DNA of 64,000 nucleotides from Thermoanaerobaculia bacterium (GTDB taxonomy: Bacteria; Acidobacteriota; Thermoanaerobaculia; Multivoradales; Multivoraceae): contig OY762911.1 in the NCBI GenBank assembly GCA_963666565.1, positions 544,001 to 608,000 on the forward strand, in the 5' to 3' direction. Both the position numbers and the translations under genes were made by a program. Below the pieces are notes generated by a model. It saw only the letters and a list, made by a program, of their open reading frames with translations. It made no database searches and was not told where the DNA came from. Shown piece by piece: positions 3,749 through 11,081 of the stretch; position 1 is the stretch's first letter, and each line of letters starts with the position of its first letter.

Positions 3749-4713
3749 CCGCCTGGCTCGCGGACTTCGCGGGCGCCGGAGACCGCATCGGCGACGACGC
3801 CGTCCTGCTCACGCTCGGCGGACGGCGGTACGCGCTCAGCGTCGACACGCAGCGCGCCGGCGTTCACGTCCCGGTCGATCTCGACCCCGCCCACGCCGCC
3901 CGCCGGCTGCTAGCCGTCGGCCTGTCGGACCTCGCCGCCACCGGCGCCGCGCCGCGGTGGATGCTCCTCGCGCTCGGCATCGACAACGAAGGCGCCGCCC
4001 GGCGCTTCCTCGCGGCCCTGGTGCGCGCCGGCCGCCGGCACGGCATCGAGCTGATCGGGGGCGACACCGCCCGGCCGACGACGCCCGGCCGGCTGGACGC
4101 CAGCCTGACCGTGGTGGGCGAGATACCGGATGGCGGCTCGCCCCTGACCCGCGCCGCGGCCCGCCCCGGCGACCGGCTCTGGCTCGGCGGGCCGGTCGGC
4201 GAATCCGCCCTGGGGCTCGACCTCGTCCGCCGGGGCGCGCGGATCGTCAAGCGACGGACCCGCCTGCCGGAAGCGCTGCCCGGCGAACTGAGCCGCGTGG
4301 CCGCCCGCGTGCTGCGCCGCCACCTGGAACCCCGGCCTCAGCTCGACCTGGGCCTGGCGCTCGGGCGGCGGCAGCCGCCCGGCGCCGCCATCGACGTGTC
4401 GGACGGCCTGGCCGCCGACGCGGCGCGGCTATGCCGCCGGAGCGGCGTCGGCTGCGAGTTCGACGAGCCGGCGCTCGCGCTCCGCGCCGACGCCCGCCGC
4501 CTGGCACGCCGCCTGGACCGGGAGCCCCTCGACCTGGCGCTCGCGGGCGGCGAGGACTACGTGCTTCTCTTCACCCTGCCGCCGGACGCCGAGTTCCGGC
4601 ATCCCGGCTGCCGGCCCGCCGGCCGCGTCGTGGGCCAGCCGGGCCTCAAGCTGCGCCGGGCCGACGGAACGCTCGAACCGTTGGCCCGCGCCGGCTGGGA
4701 TCACCTGGGCTGA
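3724..4713 (+). CDS. thiL: Thiamine-monophosphate kinase
   Basis: IGDDA, LSDLAATGA, LIGGDT, AIDVSDGL, GGEDYVLLFT, GWDH motifs. Confidence 0.92.
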
Positions 4714-4728
4714 TGCCGGCGCAGCCGG

Positions 4729-5706
4729 TCAGCGGCTCAGGGTGACCGTGATCGGCTGGTCGAGTTTCTGAAGGACCTGGCTCAACTGGGCCTCCAGAGC
4801 GGCCAGCCGCGCCTCGACGCTGCCCGCCGCGGGCGCCGCCTTGCGCCGTCTCCGCGCCGGCGCCTTCGCCGCAGCGGCCTTCTTCGCGGGCGCGGCCTTC
4901 TTCGCGGGCGCCGCCTTGGCCTTCGGCTTCCGGCCGCGCGTACTCTGCGAGCGAATCTCGCGGAACACGGCCACCGCCTCCGGGTGGTAGCGCCGCTTCC
5001 GGCCCTTGCCCTCGTGCGGAATCCGGTCGCCGTAGAGCTTGAGGTAGCGCTGCAGCGTGGGCCCGGAGATGCCCGCCTGCTGGCCGACCGCGGTCAGCGT
5101 CAGCAGCTTCGGAGCGGCGGCCTTGGGCTTCGCCGCAGCCTTGGGCTTCGCCGCAGCCTTGGGCTTCGCCGCAGCCCTGGGCTTCGCCGCAGCCTTCGGC
5201 TTCGCGGCGGCCTTCGGCTTCGCGGCGGCCTTCGGCTTCGCGGCGGCCGGCGCCTTCTTCGGCTTGCGGCCCGGTCGGCTCGCCGCCCGGAGCTCGCGGA
5301 ACACCGCCACCGCCTCCGGGTGGTAGCGCCGCTTCCGGCCTTCGCCCTCGTGTGGAATCTTGTCGCTGAACAGCTTCACGTAGCGCTGCAGCGTCGGATA
5401 GGAGATTCCGGTCTTCTCGCCGATGCTGGACAGCGTCAGCAGCTTCGGAGCGGCGGCGGCCTTCGCCGGCGCGGCGGCCTTCTTCCGACCCGCGCCGCGG
5501 CGCCTGGTGGACCGTTCGGCCTTCAGTTGCCTGAAGACCCTCACCGCGGCGACCGGGTACCGCTGCCTGCGGCCCGAGCCTTCCGACGGAAGCCGGTCCT
5601 GGTAGAGCTTCTTGTACCGCAGGGCGGTGGCCATCGACACACCCGCCCGGCGAGCCACTTCGCCCAATGTCAAGAGCTTCTTCTTTCCAGCAGCCGCTGC
5701 ACTCAC
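4729..5706 (-). CDS. Basic DNA-binding protein: three tandem MerR/Xis-like HTH modules with histone-H1-like Lys/Ala/Pro linkers and a C-terminal coiled coil
   Basis: GTG at 5706 preceded by SD AAGGAG. Three repeats of LLTL..V...GIS..TL.RY.KL..D.IP.EG.GR.RRY..EAV.VFR; (AAAKPK)x7 linker; tail VEARLAALEAQLSQVLQKL. Confidence 0.85.
   Translation of the reverse strand: MSAAAAGKKKLLTLGEVARRAGVSMATALRYKKLYQDRLPSEGSGRRQRYPVAAVRVFRQLKAERSTRRRGAGRKKAAAPAKAAAAPKLLTLSSIGEKTGISYPTLQRYVKLFSDKIPHEGEGRKRRYHPEAVAVFRELRAASRPGRKPKKAPAAAKPKAAAKPKAAAKPKAAAKPRAAAKPKAAAKPKAAAKPKAAAPKLLTLTAVGQQAGISGPTLQRYLKLYGDRIPHEGKGRKRRYHPEAVAVFREIRSQSTRGRKPKAKAAPAKKAAPAKKAAAAKAPARRRRKAAPAAGSVEARLAALEAQLSQVLQKLDQPITVTLSR
5113..5248. 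repeat. 18-bp in-frame tandem repeat (~7 copies) encoding AAAKPK
   Basis: Repeated unit GCCTT(G/C)GGCTTCGC(C/G)GC(A/G) on the + strand. Confidence 0.9.
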
Positions 5707-5821
5707 AAGGATTCTCCTTACGCCTCCGCGTTTCTCCGTTCGGCTCCCCTTGGGGAACGCAATGATCGAAGCGCGACGATAGCAGAAGAGTCCTCGGAAT
5801 CGCAGGCTCATGCCAGATCGA

Positions 5822-8800
5822 TCAGTCGTTCGTCAGAGGTTCGTAGTTCAGTTTTCTCACCAGGTACGACATCGCCTGCCGGCTGATGCCGAGAAGGCGG
5901 GCCGCCTGAGCCTGCTTGCCTCCCGCTTCCGCAAGCGCGTTGCCGATCAGGCGGCGCCGGTACCGATCCATCTTCCAGTGGTAGCCGGTCTGGCCGGGCG
6001 CCTCGTCGCCGGCGACTTCTTCCGGCAGCCCCAACATGTCAACCGAGATCTCCGGCCCTTCGGCGAGCGCCACCGCTCCGTCGATGGCGTTCTTCAACTC
6101 CCTGACGTTTCCCGGCCAGGAGTAGCCGCGAATCTTCGCGCAGGCCTCGTCGCTCAGCCTCAGATCCTGCCGCTCCAGGGCGGACTCCTCGAGGAAGTGG
6201 CGCGCAAGCAACATCACGTCTTCCTCCCGCTCGCGCAACGGCGGCGCTTGCACATGGGCGACCCGGAGCCGGTAGTAGAGATCCTGCCGGAACTCGCCGG
6301 CCTTGACCATCGCCGCGAGATCCCGATGAGTCGCGGAGACCAGCCGGAAGTCGAGCTGTCGCGTCCGGCTCTCGCCGACCCGCCGCATCTCGCCTTCCTG
6401 CAGCAGGCGCAGGAGCATTCCCTGCGCCGCCCACGGCAGTTCTCCGATCTCGTCGAGGAACACCACGCCGCCTTCCGCGCTCTCGAACACGCCGATCCGA
6501 TCGCTGTCGGCGCCGGTGAACGCCCCGCGCCGATGGCCGAAGAGGTCGGAAAGCAGCAGGCCGTCGGGCAGCGCCGCACAGTTGACCGCCAACCAGGGAA
6601 GGGAGGCGCGAGCGCTGAACCGGTGGAGCTGACGCGCCAGCAGCTCCTTGCCGGTTCCCGACTCGCCGAGAATCAGCACCGGCAGATCGTGGGCCGCGAG
6701 CTTGCGGATCCGGGCCTGCGCCTCGAGCAGGGCCTTGCTCCGACCGATCATTCCGGACCTCGCCGCCATCCTCGGTTCCGCCAGCTCGGAAACCCCGCGC
6801 CGGCGCCGGGTGGAGACCGGCAGGCGAGTCGCAACCGCCGTTGCCAGCGCCCGCGCCGGTTCGTCGATCCGGTCGGCGCTGAGCACCAGTCGCCCCATGG
6901 CGGTCTCGACCGCGAACCGGTCGCCGCCGCCGGAGCCCCGGAGAAGGACCTCTCGCCGCGCGTCCGGCGCATCGCTCCCCGCCAGGGAACCGTGCACCGC
7001 CAGCCGGGCGTCGGGATGACCGGCCGAGGACATCAGGATCCGGTAGGCCTCCGCGTCGGGATTCGGCGTGGCCAGGAACACGCGAAGAGCGCGCCAGGGA
7101 CCGACGCGCGCGCCCTCCACGCGTTGGACCAGCGCTTCGGCGCCGGCGGCCGAGAGGGTCTGCGCGGCCGTGGCCAGCAGACCGACCGGGACCGACTCGA
7201 CTCCGAGGCAGATCAGGTCGTGAACGGTCAGCGCGGCGGGGAAGGGACCCTGCTCCTCGACCCGCCTCCAGTCTGCGGCCCCCGGCGGTTCGCCCTCGCC
7301 GACGGCCTCCCAGAGTCCCGCCTGTCCGGCGCCGGGCGCGACGGCACGCGCCTCGTCCCGGAGGCTCGCGAGCAGCAGCAGGGGCGCCAGTTCGTCGGCT
7401 TCGGCCGGTGTCCAGGCAGCGAGCGGCCGCTCTACCGCGTCGGTTAGTTCCTTCGCCGCCTCCCGCGCGCGTCCGAGCTGGATCCGGGCGCGCGCCGAGA
7501 GCAGGCGCAGCGAGCGAAGCTGCCGCCATCCCGACCGCCGCCCGCGCAGGTCCTCCAGGGCCGCCGCGCAGCACCGGAGAGCCGACTCCCAGCGACCCAG
7601 CGCGAGGAACCGGCGCGCGTCCAGCAGCCGCGCCTCCACGGTCGCGCGGACGCTGCCCGCCATCAGACCTTCCCGCCGCAGGTCCTCGATCGTCCCGGCG
7701 ACTCCGTCGAAGCGGCCGGTGCGGATCCGGATCTCAGCGAGGATTCCATGGGCGGCGGCTCTCCCGGCGGGTCCGTCGCAACGCCGGAACAGGCCCACCG
7801 CGATCCGGGCCGCCCGCTCGGCCCGCTCGAAGTCGTTCACCGACAGCCGCAGCGAGGCCAGTTCGCGCCACAGCAGCGCGCGCTCGTACACCGGAAGCCC
7901 GTCGCCGAGACTCCCGAGGCCGGCCCGGAGCAGCCGCTCGGCTTCGCCGAAGCGGCCACTGGCCGAAGCGAGCCGGGCGCTCGCCAGGACCTCCGTCCAG
8001 TCCTCCGGCTCTTCGCTTCCGGGCGCCAGCAGGGCGGCCATCGCGTCGAGGTCGCCAAGTTCCCACTTCGCCAGCGCGCACAGGACGCGGGCGCGGCGGG
8101 CGCGCGGGCCGGCGGCGGCCTCGAGCGCCCGCTCCGACCAGCCCTCGATCCGGTCCGCGTGGCCCGCGGTCGCGTGGATTCCGATCGCCAGTTCGCACCG
8201 TTCCAGCTCGCGCCCGCCCGAGAGCCCGTGCTTCTCCAGCGTGCCCAGCGTGCGCCGCGCGGCGGCGGTCCGGCCCAGCCGCAGCTGAGCCCGGAGACGG
8301 ACCAGGACGTCGTCCGTTCTCCCGGAGTCCTTCACCAGCTTCAGGGCCGCCTCGAAGCGGCCGCCTTCGACAAGGCGGCGCGCCTGAGCCGACCGGTCCT
8401 CCGGCGCCTCGGGCGGCGCGGGGGTCGACCGGGCCGCCGGCGCCGCCGATCCTCCAGCGGTTCCATGGACCCCGGATCCGGCGTCCCTGGCACGGCGCCA
8501 GAACGAACGCGCCGCCTCGCCGCCCGCGACGGCTTCGCGGCGGTCGGCAGCGTCCATCCGCGCCAGGGACCGCCGCCACGCGGGCCGGCCGGCGACCGCC
8601 ACGCGTGCGCCGCCCCCGCGTTCCAGGATCGCGAACAGGGACGCGCGCGCCGCCTCGAACCCGCTCCCCCAGAGGAACGGCGCTCGGGCCAGAACGTCGG
8701 CGACCGCGCGGTTCGCGGAAACCGGCAGCAGCTCGTCGCGCCAGCTCTCGAAGAGCGGTCGAAGCGCCGCCCGCACGGCGCTCCGGCCGAGCGCTCCCTC

Positions 8801-9094
8801 GCTTCCGAACACGAGCGCAACCAGGAGCCTCAGCGGAACCTGCGGCAGCCGATCGTCCCGCACGGGCGCGACGGAGCCCGGGGGAACCCGGAGCACGCCG
8901 CCTCCGTCCACCCGAAGCTCCCGCCATTCGAGGCGCCACCCGGCCGCCCGCGCGTGAGCCAGCAGCGCCGCTCCCTGGAGGAAGAGGGACGCGCGCTCCC
9001 GGTCGGAAACGACCATCCCCTCCAGGTCGGCTACCGCGGCGCCCTCGGGAACCGGCTCGAGCGACGGGTGACGAATGCGAAGAACGCCGGTCAC
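5822..9094 (-). CDS. Sigma-54-dependent enhancer-binding protein with long N-terminal TPR-like region
   Basis: GESGTGKE, GAFTGA, FLDEIGE, WPGNVREL, Fis-type HTH AQAARLLGISRQAM. GTG start at 9094 overlaps the aroA stop (GTGA). Confidence 0.88.
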   Translation of the reverse strand: MTGVLRIRHPSLEPVPEGAAVADLEGMVVSDRERASLFLQGAALLAHARAAGWRLEWRELRVDGGGVLRVPPGSVAPVRDDRLPQVPLRLLVALVFGSEGALGRSAVRAALRPLFESWRDELLPVSANRAVADVLARAPFLWGSGFEAARASLFAILERGGGARVAVAGRPAWRRSLARMDAADRREAVAGGEAARSFWRRARDAGSGVHGTAGGSAAPAARSTPAPPEAPEDRSAQARRLVEGGRFEAALKLVKDSGRTDDVLVRLRAQLRLGRTAAARRTLGTLEKHGLSGGRELERCELAIGIHATAGHADRIEGWSERALEAAAGPRARRARVLCALAKWELGDLDAMAALLAPGSEEPEDWTEVLASARLASASGRFGEAERLLRAGLGSLGDGLPVYERALLWRELASLRLSVNDFERAERAARIAVGLFRRCDGPAGRAAAHGILAEIRIRTGRFDGVAGTIEDLRREGLMAGSVRATVEARLLDARRFLALGRWESALRCCAAALEDLRGRRSGWRQLRSLRLLSARARIQLGRAREAAKELTDAVERPLAAWTPAEADELAPLLLLASLRDEARAVAPGAGQAGLWEAVGEGEPPGAADWRRVEEQGPFPAALTVHDLICLGVESVPVGLLATAAQTLSAAGAEALVQRVEGARVGPWRALRVFLATPNPDAEAYRILMSSAGHPDARLAVHGSLAGSDAPDARREVLLRGSGGGDRFAVETAMGRLVLSADRIDEPARALATAVATRLPVSTRRRRGVSELAEPRMAARSGMIGRSKALLEAQARIRKLAAHDLPVLILGESGTGKELLARQLHRFSARASLPWLAVNCAALPDGLLLSDLFGHRRGAFTGADSDRIGVFESAEGGVVFLDEIGELPWAAQGMLLRLLQEGEMRRVGESRTRQLDFRLVSATHRDLAAMVKAGEFRQDLYYRLRVAHVQAPPLREREEDVMLLARHFLEESALERQDLRLSDEACAKIRGYSWPGNVRELKNAIDGAVALAEGPEISVDMLGLPEEVAGDEAPGQTGYHWKMDRYRRRLIGNALAEAGGKQAQAARLLGISRQAMSYLVRKLNYEPLTND

Positions 9095-10416
9095 CGGCGG
9101 ATCCCCTCGAGGTCCCGCCAGAAACCCGGGTACGACTTGCCCACGACCTCCGGACGCCGGATCGAGAGGCCTCCCCGGCGCAGCCCCACCAGGGCCATGC
9201 TCATCGCGATCCGGTGGTCGTCCCAGGCGTCGATCGGGACCCGCGGCGACCCGGGCCGGACGGAGAGGCCGGGATCGCCCTCGATCCGCAGGCCGTCCGC
9301 CAGCTCGTCGACCGTCACGCCGGCGCGGCGCAGTTCGGTCGCGACCGCGGCCAGGCGGTCGCTCTCCTTGATCTTCAGGTGGGCCACGTTGCGGATCCGG
9401 GTCGTGCCCTCGGCGAAGGCCGCCACGGCCGCCAGCGTCGGCGCCTGGTCGGGCATCGCCGACAGGTCGCAGTCGAGCGCGGTCAGGGCGCCGCCGTCCT
9501 CCACCCGGATCTCCTCCGGCGTCGCCCGGACGCGGGCGCCCATCCGTTCGAGGAGTTCCAGGAAGGCCCGGTCGCCCTGGGTCGACACCGGCGCCAGGCC
9601 GCGCAGGCGCACCGCGCCGCCGCAGATGGCGGCGGCCGCCGCCGGGTAGGCGGCCGCCGAATCGTCGCCCGCGACCCGGTAGCGGCCGCCGGCCGGTTCG
9701 GGCCGGCACGGTTCCACCCGGAACTCGCGCGCTTCGCCGTCGCGGCGCACCGCTACCGGCGCGCCGAAGTCGGCCATGACGGAGAGAGTCGTGTCCACAT
9801 ATGGACTGGAGACGAGAAACGGCGCCAGGAGTTCGATCGGGCCCTCGGCCGCGAGCGCCGCCATCAGCAGCGCGGACACGTACTGGCTCGACTCCCGCGC
9901 GTCGATCTCGACCCGGCCGCCAGCCAGCCGTCCCCCCCGGACGCGGACCGGCGCGCAGCCCGGCTCGCCGAGCTCGTCGATCCTCGCGCCGAGCTGCCGC
10001 AACGCCCCGACCAGCGGGCCGATCGGCCGCTCGCGCAACCGGGGGGCGCCGTCGAGCACCCACTCGCCCGGGGTCACGGCGCAGGTGGCGACCAGCAGGC
10101 GCAGCAGGGTGCCCGAGCTCCGGCAGTCGAGCCGGACCGGTCCCCGAACCGCCTCCCGCAGCGGCGGTTCCACCCGCAGCGCCCCGGCGGCGCCGAAACG
10201 GAGGCGCCAGTCCATCGCCTCCAGCACGGCCCGGAAGGCGGCGATGTCGTCGGCCTCCAGCAGGTTCTCGATCGTCGCCGGCCGCCGTCCGATCAGGGCG
10301 AGGTTCAGGGCGCGGTTGGAGATGCTCTTCGAACCGGGCGGCGCCACCGCGCCCCCGACGGCCGCCGCGCGGCGGACCGGGTACGGGTCCGGCAGAGGCG
10401 CCGTCAGGCCAGCCAC
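9091..10416 (-). CDS. aroA: 3-phosphoshikimate 1-carboxyvinyltransferase (EPSP synthase)
   Basis: PGSKSISNRAL, RLRERPI, SSQYVSALL, LKIKESDRL, DDHRIAMS, KSYPGFW. Start approximate (GTG 10416). Confidence 0.94.
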   Translation of the reverse strand: MAGLTAPLPDPYPVRRAAAVGGAVAPPGSKSISNRALNLALIGRRPATIENLLEADDIAAFRAVLEAMDWRLRFGAAGALRVEPPLREAVRGPVRLDCRSSGTLLRLLVATCAVTPGEWVLDGAPRLRERPIGPLVGALRQLGARIDELGEPGCAPVRVRGGRLAGGRVEIDARESSQYVSALLMAALAAEGPIELLAPFLVSSPYVDTTLSVMADFGAPVAVRRDGEAREFRVEPCRPEPAGGRYRVAGDDSAAAYPAAAAAICGGAVRLRGLAPVSTQGDRAFLELLERMGARVRATPEEIRVEDGGALTALDCDLSAMPDQAPTLAAVAAFAEGTTRIRNVAHLKIKESDRLAAVATELRRAGVTVDELADGLRIEGDPGLSVRPGSPRVPIDAWDDHRIAMSMALVGLRRGGLSIRRPEVVGKSYPGFWRDLEGIRR

Positions 10417-11081
10417 AGCAGCCTCCGGTCGTTGAACCAGGCATCCGCAACTCGCACCTCGCCGCCGCCGGCAGGCCAGCGGCGGGCGGCGTGGAAGTGC
10501 CCGAGCAGAAGCACGTCGGCGCCTTCGGCCAGCCGCCGCGCCGCGTAGCGCCGGACGGCCGCCTCCGGGATCCGGGCCTTGTGCTCGAGGTTCGTCCGCG
10601 CCAGGCCGCGCTCGGTGGACGCGACGAGGCGACGGCCGACCGACCGCGGCAGGCGAAACGTCAACCAGCGGCTCAGCGCGTTCTTCGACAGCCGGCGCCA
10701 GCAGCGATAGCGCCAGTCGCGCGGATTCAGCCCGTCGCCGTGGACCGCGAGGTACCGGACCCCGCCGTCGTCGAAGCGGACCTCGCGGCCACAGTCGTCG
10801 AAGAGGTCGCCGTAGGCGCCTTCGCCGACGAAGAAGTCGCGGTTTCCCTCCACGTAGGAGACCCGGATCCCGCGCCGCCGGAGGCCCCGGATCGCGGCCG
10901 CGAGCCGCCGCACCTCGGGCGTCTCGAAGCGGCGCGAGCCGATCCACAGGTGGAACAGGTCGCCCAGGAACAGCACCCGCGCGCAGTCGGCGGGGTCCAG
11001 CTCGCCGAGCTGCGCGGCCAGATCCTCGCCGTTGCCCCCGGGACCGCCCAGGTGCGCATCGGCGACCACGACGACAGGCAC
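10404..11081 (-). CDS. UDP-2,3-diacylglucosamine diphosphatase-like metallophosphoesterase (LpxH family)
   Basis: DAH, GDLF, GNRDF, HGD, GHFH calcineurin-like motifs. Confidence 0.85.
   Translation of the reverse strand: MPVVVVADAHLGGPGGNGEDLAAQLGELDPADCARVLFLGDLFHLWIGSRRFETPEVRRLAAAIRGLRRRGIRVSYVEGNRDFFVGEGAYGDLFDDCGREVRFDDGGVRYLAVHGDGLNPRDWRYRCWRRLSKNALSRWLTFRLPRSVGRRLVASTERGLARTNLEHKARIPEAAVRRYAARRLAEGADVLLLGHFHAARRWPAGGGEVRVADAWFNDRRLLWLA

Follow-up and report, generated by a model that had tools for sequence, protein, structure and literature searches.

Detailed knowledge of nucleoid and global DNA-binding proteins is limited to a few bacterial phyla, and a search of the open-access literature and bioRxiv found none described for Acidobacteriota. 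Does the gene at positions 4729..5706 of a 64,000-nucleotide stretch of a Thermoanaerobaculia bacterium genome (GenBank assembly GCA_963666565.1, contig OY762911.1, positions 544,001 to 608,000; hereafter the window) encode such a protein? An earlier note, made from the letters of the window, had read the gene as encoding three helix-turn-helix (HTH) modules joined by histone-H1-like linkers, and had proposed a multivalent, oligomerising DNA-bridging protein. We find a real, conserved gene of an uncultured Acidobacteria group, and sequence and structure predictions that support three MerR/Xis-type winged HTH (wHTH) modules. The function we favour, with a probability of roughly 45%, is that of a polydentate architectural or global DNA-binding protein, in which covalently linked BldC/Xis-like units would be joined by linkers resembling those of HMGA and histone H1.

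Three predicted winged helices in one basic chain

The gene lies on the minus strand, as do all other features for which window coordinates are given below, and comprises 325 codons and a stop. The open reading frame (ORF) ending at 4729 has two possible starts, ATG 5811 (360 residues) and GTG 5706 (325 residues). A Shine-Dalgarno sequence, AAGGAG (5714..5719), is located 7 nt before the GTG, and its GGAG is kept in all six aligned upstream regions of the genus. The 21 aligned orthologues start at or after the residue equivalent to GTG 5706, most of them with MSAAAAG, and conservation in the genus DNA alignment sets in exactly at GGAG-N7-GTG. These three observations identify GTG 5706 as the true start, and the 360-residue reading was rejected on the same grounds. 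The earlier note was thus right about the strong ribosome-binding site, as it was about a very basic protein of 325 residues: the calculated pI is 11.67 and the net charge +65, with 82 lysines and arginines against 17 acidic residues, and alanine makes up 22.8% of the chain. The source genome is a single contig of 4.79 Mb (71% G+C, 97% complete) and contains the gene in single copy.

Three stretches of the protein match Pfam MerR_1 (PF13411; E 1.6e-12, 47.8 bits against a cut-off of 21.6) and HTH_17 (PF12728; E 1e-10, 42.2 bits against a cut-off of 27), and the phage family PHROG 66, 'excisionase and transcriptional regulator', matches at E 1.8e-12. Pfam, the predicted structure, structural searches and a module tree (see below) agree on module 1, of type A (residues 11-66; 5509..5676), module 2, of type B (residues 89-144; 5275..5442), and module 3, of type B' (residues 201-256; 4939..5106). 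Modules 2 and 3 share 71% of their residues and 79% of their nucleotides and are contained in a direct repeat of 266 nt with 76% identity; module 1 has 46-50% of its residues in common with either. The two B modules had been called nearly identical at the DNA level, which is correct for the stretch then quoted (5275-5337 against 4939-5001; 59 of 63 nt identical, 35 nt exact) but not for the modules as a whole. Module 2 of this genome reads HPEAVAVFRE, the same as module 3, where most close orthologues have HPD[SA]VAVFR in module 2; a short tract of gene conversion between the two modules may account for this.

An AlphaFold2 model, built with an alignment of 22 orthologues, predicts each module as helix, helix, short hairpin and helix, with a local confidence score (pLDDT) of about 90 or more (about 90-96 in module 1). 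Each module ends in a helix of 12-19 residues that runs into a linker predicted to be disordered (residues 73-85, 151-197 and 263-294, all with pLDDT <50), and a last helix spans residues 297-315. The predicted template modelling score (pTM) of 0.28 indicates that the modules have no fixed mutual arrangement. When all representative structures were searched, 17 of the 18 top matches were MerR-family DNA-binding domains, led by CbpM (Z 7.8), Rv1828 and CvkR (both 7.3), SoxR (7.0), TnrA (6.9), and RacA and GlnR (both 6.8). Further down are pSK1 Par (5.6), RdfS and TorI (both 5.0), Pukovnik Xis (4.6), TraN (4.2) and BldC (3.8, over 51 residues of module 2). The search tool itself warns that Z values of this size are only middling; the list is nearly uniform, each match spans a whole module, and the result accords with Pfam. 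The DNA-binding domain of RacA aligns with a module over 59 residues with a root mean square deviation (r.m.s.d.) of 2.7 Å, and a Foldseek search with the whole model returned the same domain with a probability of 1.00, an r.m.s.d. of 2.4-2.8 Å and a target-normalised TM score of 0.64-0.69. At E <= 0.001 the whole-model search returned nothing, an effect of the arbitrary position of the modules relative to one another; the matches to single domains were nevertheless informative. The earlier note had asked for such a fold prediction, and its assignment of the modules to the MerR/Xis type is supported by the Pfam matches and the predicted fold.

Judged by sequence and model, the protein is not a classical MerR regulator. 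The wHTH is there, but two of the three defining features are not: Pfam and the model show no long dimerisation helix after any of the wings and no effector- or metal-binding domain beyond the modules. When PDB sequences were searched with profiles of the whole protein and of the module, all matches were either spurious or no closer than the general HTH level (TetR, LacI, S18, a designed solenoid). Neither search listed RacA, BldC or Xis, and with the module profile BldC was absent at E values up to 10. In a scan of NCBIfam no model came near its cut-off, and no curated family there covers the architecture, which is also described in no paper that we found in the open-access literature or on bioRxiv. 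The earlier note's remark that the architecture was unfamiliar therefore holds, and its term 'multivalent' is correct by construction, given three modules in one chain. The novelty appears to lie in the combination of known parts, winged helices and HMGA/H1-like linkers, in one polypeptide.

Two excisionase/MerR-like HTH folds in one chain also occur in TraN of the Enterococcus plasmid pIP501. This double-stranded DNA-binding protein ranked second in the Foldseek search (E 0.045), but it is compact (114-117 residues), belongs to a conjugation system, and has neither basic linkers nor the C-terminal helix. BldC of Streptomyces is described as a monomeric MerR-like wHTH protein that assembles head-to-tail on direct repeats and distorts the DNA, and its authors class it together with RacA and Xis among the architectural proteins of this fold (PMC5859096). 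Gp36 of phage D29 is a weakly oligomerising MerR-type repressor acting on GC-rich direct repeats (PMC12266134), and RdfS forms helical wHTH filaments that bend DNA and read long regions of it indirectly (PMC11963761). Like BldC and Gp36, the modules described here are MerR-type wHTHs without a dimerisation helix or effector domain. However, BldC is a single domain of 68 residues that forms non-covalent multimers, whereas our protein has three domains (one to five in relatives) in one chain, and additionally has basic AT-hook/H1-like linkers and a C-terminal helix. With several domains and 325 residues against about 68, it is not a strict member of the BldC family.

Distribution, synteny and module history

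A word-seeded protein search at E <= 1e-3 yielded 370 relatives. They come from metagenome-assembled genomes of Holophagales, Acidobacteria and Thermoanaerobaculia, and those with names are labelled 'hypothetical', 'MerR regulator', 'AlpA', 'excisionase family' or 'helix-turn-helix domain-containing'. In a sample of the phylum, matches at E <= 1e-5 were present in at least 21 of 301 genomes including the source genome (the count is a lower bound), among them all five other genomes of the genus and at least four of the six others of the order. A contig scan with one genome per species produced 65 related loci, of which 63 have titles pointing to Acidobacteria or Thermoanaerobaculia (among them Candidatus Multivorans, Multivoraceae, Multivoradales and Thermoanaerobaculum); the other two are titled Deltaproteobacteria and just 'bacterium'. 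According to a module profile, 38 of these loci encode three modules, one encodes four, 23 encode two and three encode one, two of the last being cut by contig ends. The same profile matched 850 of 1.84 billion cluster representatives at E <= 1e-3; among the 82 matches at E <= 1e-30, two matching stretches were found in 75, three in 3, four in 2 and five in 2. Module number thus ranges from one to five across relatives, in an otherwise similar layout. The only look-alikes in the atlas are Acidobacteriota HTH_17/MerR_1 clusters, automatically named 'hypothetical protein' or with generic HTH terms.

The surroundings of the gene are conserved (sigma-54 activator > gene < thiL < lon). A sigma-54 activator is encoded upstream on the same strand in 58 of the 65 loci, thiL is convergent in 58 and lon follows beyond thiL in 56; loci without these neighbours are mostly short or cut. 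Conservation of the whole block shows vertical inheritance, and on this evidence the gene is a core gene of the Thermoanaerobaculia-type Acidobacteriota lineage. It also bears on the possibility that the protein serves a mobile element as its excisionase (recombination directionality factor), as could be thought from the above-threshold HTH_17 match, the PHROG 66 match and the structural matches to RdfS, TorI and Xis. Lambda Xis, RdfS and TorI do have the same small wHTH fold (Z 4.6-5.0), and proteins of this group assemble cooperatively into DNA-bending filaments (PMC11963761), but they reside on mobile elements and are partnered by an integrase, whereas the present gene is chromosomal, single-copy and syntenic. 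The six neighbouring ORFs that were scanned contain no match to an integrase family, and the G+C content of the gene (71.8%) equals that of the window (71.1%). The synteny contradicts an excisionase, a reading to which we attach hardly any weight; by its context, the protein is not one.

A tree of 161 modules from 61 proteins, leaving out the three one-module loci and locus L045 with its masked stretch, separates the first module of every protein (type A, support 0.998) from type B. The second module of two-module proteins is sister to modules 2 and 3 of three-module proteins (support 0.80), which in turn form one clade each (support 0.79 and 0.90). We conclude from this topology that the ancestral protein had the composition A-B, and that a single duplication of B took place at the root of the three-module clade. 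Since modules 2 and 3 fall into separate clades across species, their similarity is old, and recent gene conversion was rejected as its general cause.

Type A and type B are distinct and conserved throughout the group, which argues for a sequence component in binding and keeps a pleiotropic regulator of the BldC kind in play as a strong rival. Such a transcription factor would be sequence-specific, with A, B and B' reading a composite direct-repeat operator to control a defined regulon; it might in addition be a partner of the upstream sigma-54 activator, for instance as a DNA-bending helper for loop-dependent sigma-54 promoters. We consider this a serious possibility, if clearly below even odds. 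The residues of the recognition helix are nearly invariant in the 22 orthologues, the folded modules being the most conserved parts of the protein, and MerR-like wHTH regulators that work on direct repeats exist in BldC (PMC5859096) and D29 Gp36 (PMC12266134). Codon adaptation is ordinary (see below), and the activator, which has AAA+ and HTH_8 domains at its C-terminus, still adjoins the gene where its identity has dropped to 41-47%. However, because the entire lon-thiL-gene-activator block is kept, the adjacency is no proof of a functional tie, and the gene has promoter-like signals of its own. No sigma-54 promoter was seen upstream of the gene when the genus-aligned sequence was inspected by eye, without a dedicated scan; the candidate TGGCAT-N5-TGC was rejected, as its spacing is one base short and the other aligned genus sequences do not keep it. 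The only upstream motif that the two- and three-module clades have in common is the ribosome-binding site, and no repeated operator-like element shared by them was found. A charge of +65 and AT-hook/H1-like linkers would also be unusual in a narrow regulator.

The activator itself (5822-10450) is very large. Pfam recognises only its last ~310 residues (Sigma54_activat, AAA_lid_14, HTH_8). For the long N-terminal part, which is 50-69% identical within the genus, Pfam gave nothing at E <= 1e-5, and the true start lies well inside the ORF of 1542 codons.

Linkers and the C-terminal end

The first basic linker, TRRRGAGRKKAAAPAKAAAAPK, comprises residues 67-88 (5443..5508). Module 2 is followed by the AT-hook-like motif RPGRKPK (residues 144-150; 5257..5277), whose PGRKPK is nearly invariant in the 22 orthologues but does not have the canonical RGRP core. 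The second linker then continues with (AAAKPK)x7 (residues 154-195; 5122..5247), encoded by an 18-bp unit repeated 6.8 times with 95% matches; one of the protein units reads KPR. None of the 21 aligned orthologues has this array, and about 35-44 residues of KAPARKKRKARAKAA-type linker take its place, so that the array is, on this alignment, a peculiarity of the genome and not a feature of the family. Contigs from short reads (four DNA runs of one study) have identical flanks but break inside the repeats, and the copy number of the array is accordingly that of the assembly. Module 3 is followed by a second AT-hook-like motif, TRGRKPK (residues 256-262; 4921..4941), seen in the sequence and the orthologue alignment, and by a basic H1-like tail (residues 257-294; 4825..4938) with PAKKA repeats at about residues 266-284. 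The repeats and hook-like motifs listed in the earlier note are therefore all present.

Canonical RGRP is found neither in this protein nor in any of the 37 three-module relatives, which have GRKP instead (mean 1.8 per protein), whereas all 23 two-module relatives contain RGRP (mean 1.5 per protein). A basic motif directly behind each module is a conserved trait of the family: where sequences of two-module proteins were inspected, RGRP follows module A, and in three-module proteins PGRKPK or RGRKPK follows the modules. A link of this difference to G+C content was rejected, given that the loci with RGRP span 56-72% G+C and the three-module loci 66-70%. Both groups keep a strongly positive charge, on average +0.17 per residue in the 37 three-module and +0.16 in the 23 two-module proteins. 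The canonical cores of the two-module relatives back the term 'AT-hook-like' for the motifs in the present protein.

Histone H1-like repeats of lysine, alanine and proline are known from HupB/Hlp, AlgP and Hc-type proteins, in which they either extend an HU fold or occur by themselves. In our protein there is no HU domain according to Pfam, and the repeats form variable linkers rather than a conserved core. The myxobacterial protein CarD is described as binding DNA through an unfolded HMGA-like domain, with RGRP AT-hooks next to an acidic stretch (PMC4374960); among the references of that paper is a 2009 study which, by its title, treats HMGA- and H1-like domains as functionally equivalent in a bacterial transcription factor. 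A similar swap is seen here, with RGRP in two-module members and GRKPK plus AKPK/PAKKA in the present protein. The folded part of CarD binds RNA polymerase and CarG but not DNA, while the folded parts here are the predicted DNA-binding wHTHs, and Pfam finds no CarD_CdnL_TRCF domain in the protein.

Hook-type motifs together with a C-terminal oligomerisation helix could also be the equipment of a xenogeneic silencer analogue that targets AT-rich foreign DNA, like H-NS and Lsr2. The G+C content of 71% would suit such a role, some relatives do carry RGRP hooks, and neither H-NS (PF00816) nor Lsr2 (PF11774) has a match in the 97%-complete source genome. Many bacteria lack both families, however, so their absence says little. 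The protein itself has no RGRP, its modules and not its hooks are most conserved, and oligomerisation is only putative; we think a silencer quite improbable.

The C-terminal end is the most conserved part outside the HTH modules, as judged by the last 30 residues of the orthologue alignment. It consists of a predicted amphipathic helix of three heptads (residues 297-315; 4762..4818), in which E298, R300, L301, L304, E305, Q307, V311, L312 and L315 are invariant, and the conserved end PITVTLSR (residues 318-325; 4732..4755), a proline followed by alternating hydrophobic residues. Most relatives with three or two modules likewise end in P[ILMF]x[ILV][TSV][LV]xR; one subgroup ends in ...LQKLFR instead. 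The leucine-zipper-like tail that the earlier note had noticed is borne out by a hydrophobic a/d pattern (V297-L301-L304-L308-V311-L315) that coincides with the AlphaFold helix, and both this helix and the basic linkers are conserved traits of the family, as seen in the orthologue alignment and the 65 loci. The amphipathicity of the helix is no more than moderate (Eisenberg moment 0.30, mean hydrophobicity -0.01). A prediction of self-association with two copies of the C-terminal 40 residues and an alignment scored 0.03 against a mark of 0.42; the tool returned no verdict, and the score carries no weight either way.

A conserved end of this kind raises the possibility that the protein, like RacA, RocS and RicO, is an adaptor that anchors or segregates the chromosome. 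The wHTHs would hold the chromosome, at specific sites as well as unspecifically, and the C-terminal helix and strand would attach to a partner at the pole, in the membrane or in the segregation machinery. RacA, RocS and RicO are described as having one MerR-type wHTH, capable of specific as well as unspecific DNA binding, and behind it a coiled coil; they compact and anchor chromosomes, and RocS and RicO carry a C-terminal amphipathic helix (preprint 10.64898/2026.03.06.710092). The order of wHTH and a helical, putatively self-associating region is comparable, the DNA-binding domain of RacA is among the best fold matches, and the partition protein pSK1 Par is a match too. The RacA model (NF009647) is also the only named NCBIfam match that spans a module and the C-terminal helix, but with 21.4 bits it falls far short of its cut-off of 165, and by this measure the protein is not RacA. 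RacA, RocS and RicO are Firmicutes proteins with one wHTH and a long coiled coil, in contrast to three wHTHs, disordered basic linkers and a three-heptad helix in another phylum. The model contains no long coiled coil, only about 19 helical residues of moderate amphipathicity, and no partner gene is evident in the conserved neighbourhood. An anchoring function seems unlikely to us.

The last linker is variable among relatives. Locus L040 (4031-5470), the one with four modules, has a tail of net charge -31, and locus L044 (4046-5431) has an acidic tail of net charge -19; in both, and in the proteins P0078, P0081 and P0082, the last linker consists of long acidic repeats instead of basic ones. 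These acidic inserts of 200-240 residues (VDDSGDD-type or repeated VAVRDQLEAGPAETRGEVE) are located between the last module and the conserved C-terminal helix, and together with the basic hooks they give an HMGA-like layout of basic region and acidic tail. Other relatives depart further from the common plan, with A-type modules fused to different parts. P0122 (853 residues) has four tandem A modules behind an N-terminal region of 600 residues, P0152 (465 residues) has two modules followed by about 250 further residues, and P0214 (380 residues) has one module and RGRP before a C-terminal region that resembles a TIR domain by eye. Locus L045 (4034-4963), which is partly masked, encodes a three-module homologue with an unrelated end in place of the conserved helix, probably through a frameshift or assembly error. 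Downstream of the intact homologue of locus L006 (genome G196), positions 714-870 contain a decayed B-type module (RRYHREAVAVLCEIRSQSKRGRK and a preceding fragment) with one TGA and one TAG, which looks like the remnant of a further tandem duplication.

Expression signals and the favoured function

About 70 nt before the start, five of six genus loci share TTCTGCTATCGT (5776..5787), a candidate extended -10 element (TGnTAnnnT) that may serve as promoter; the genus-conserved form, TTCTGCTAT.GT, resembles an extended -10. The shorter motif TTCTGCTA occurs upstream in 33 of the 39 loci of the three- and four-module clade. It is found 31 times in the source genome, 16 times outside crude gene calls, and motifs of this type may be a -10-type promoter element of the genus. 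A similar motif, TTCTGCTAACGT, is located on the minus strand at G000:C1:230706, about 300 nt before rpsL (230066-230383) and between rpsL and the end of the presumed rpoC ORF. Closer to the start, in the presumed 5' leader, lies the palindrome CCCCTTGGGG (5746..5755), which has similar CCC..GGG counterparts in the aligned orthologous leaders and could be an RNA hairpin or an operator. A scan of positions 4400-6200 for sigma-70 and terminator consensus sequences gave no match.

Both strands of the 65 loci, 1.08 Mb in all, contain 15 matches to a near-consensus sigma-70 promoter (TTGAC[AT]-N16-18-[TG]A[TA]AAT). Every one is just upstream of a homologue and on its strand, about 60-210 nt before it, and all belong to loci outside the three-/four-module clade (L052, L054, L057-L060, L062, L064 and L070-L076). 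They read TTGACA, a T-rich spacer of 17 nt and GATAAT, in genomes of 56-72% G+C, with GGAGG-type ribosome-binding sites downstream. We take this pattern as the signature of a strong promoter belonging to the gene in these relatives, and as an indirect hint, the sole one, at high expression.

How would a polydentate architectural protein work? As the modules have no MerR dimerisation helix or effector domain, each predicted monomeric wHTH would take one DNA site, through its recognition helix (GIS..TLQRY.K) and wing (P.EG.GR.RRY), on the model of single subunits of BldC, Xis and RdfS. Those subunits align on DNA by weak protein-protein contacts, in place of which the modules would be joined covalently by disordered, strongly basic linkers. 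The linkers (GRKPK, RGRP in relatives, AKPK/PAKKA) could sit in the minor groove or neutralise phosphates, and would set the reach of the modules towards neighbouring or distant sites. The outcome would be a polydentate binder of high avidity for clustered or distant sites, and an architectural or global factor of this kind would bend, wrap or bridge DNA and thereby affect many genes. The conserved C-terminal helix and strand might add a point of self-association or docking. DNA binding, its mode, any oligomerisation and the cellular role are what we infer from these predictions.

Several observations weigh against such a protein. The group-wide distinctness of A and B modules, with highly conserved recognition helices, would be expected of a sequence-specific factor with a composite site, no less than of a protein that coats DNA unspecifically. 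Three-module proteins have no canonical AT-hook, and the five relatives named above have acidic rather than basic last linkers. The near-consensus sigma-70 pattern seen in relatives occurs nowhere in the source genome, the region upstream of our gene included. With a codon adaptation index of 0.647, the gene ranks at the 35th percentile among 2,559 genes from a crude gene call; the reference set was the ribosomal-protein and elongation-factor gene cluster, and the index separates poorly (median 0.726 for ribosomal and 0.684 for all genes). Finally, the source genome has three genes of the HU/IHF family, so the protein is not needed as its only nucleoid protein. Two of the HU/IHF matches (G000:C1:3416757-3417026, minus strand, and 3286390-3286650, plus strand) are in open frames of 163 and 132 codons, against a domain of 90 positions, so that an extension, for instance a basic tail, may be present in either or both.

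The polydentate reading can be taken further, to a class of bacterial chromatin protein in Thermoanaerobaculia-type Acidobacteriota that has escaped recognition. Its winged helices would be fused like beads on a string by HMGA/H1-like linkers, with a valency tuned by module duplication, and it would bridge or coat DNA genome-wide and possibly silence AT-rich foreign DNA. We put this forward as a tentative idea, more doubtful than not.

The case for the gene as a candidate is that it is core, single-copy and syntenic, and that its extremely basic product consists of parts with separately documented DNA-shaping behaviour: winged helices as in BldC, Xis and RacA, AT-hooks, and H1-like repeats. 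From its sequence it is likely a global DNA-binding protein confined to this lineage, which makes it a good candidate for closing the gap in Acidobacteriota. Should it turn out to be a narrow regulator, it would represent an ordinary new family of transcription factors. If it binds DNA as proposed, it would mean that covalent concatenation can replace the cooperative filament formation of small winged helices, and the family would offer a natural series of one to five modules in which valency and linker chemistry could be related to DNA bridging as opposed to site-specific binding.

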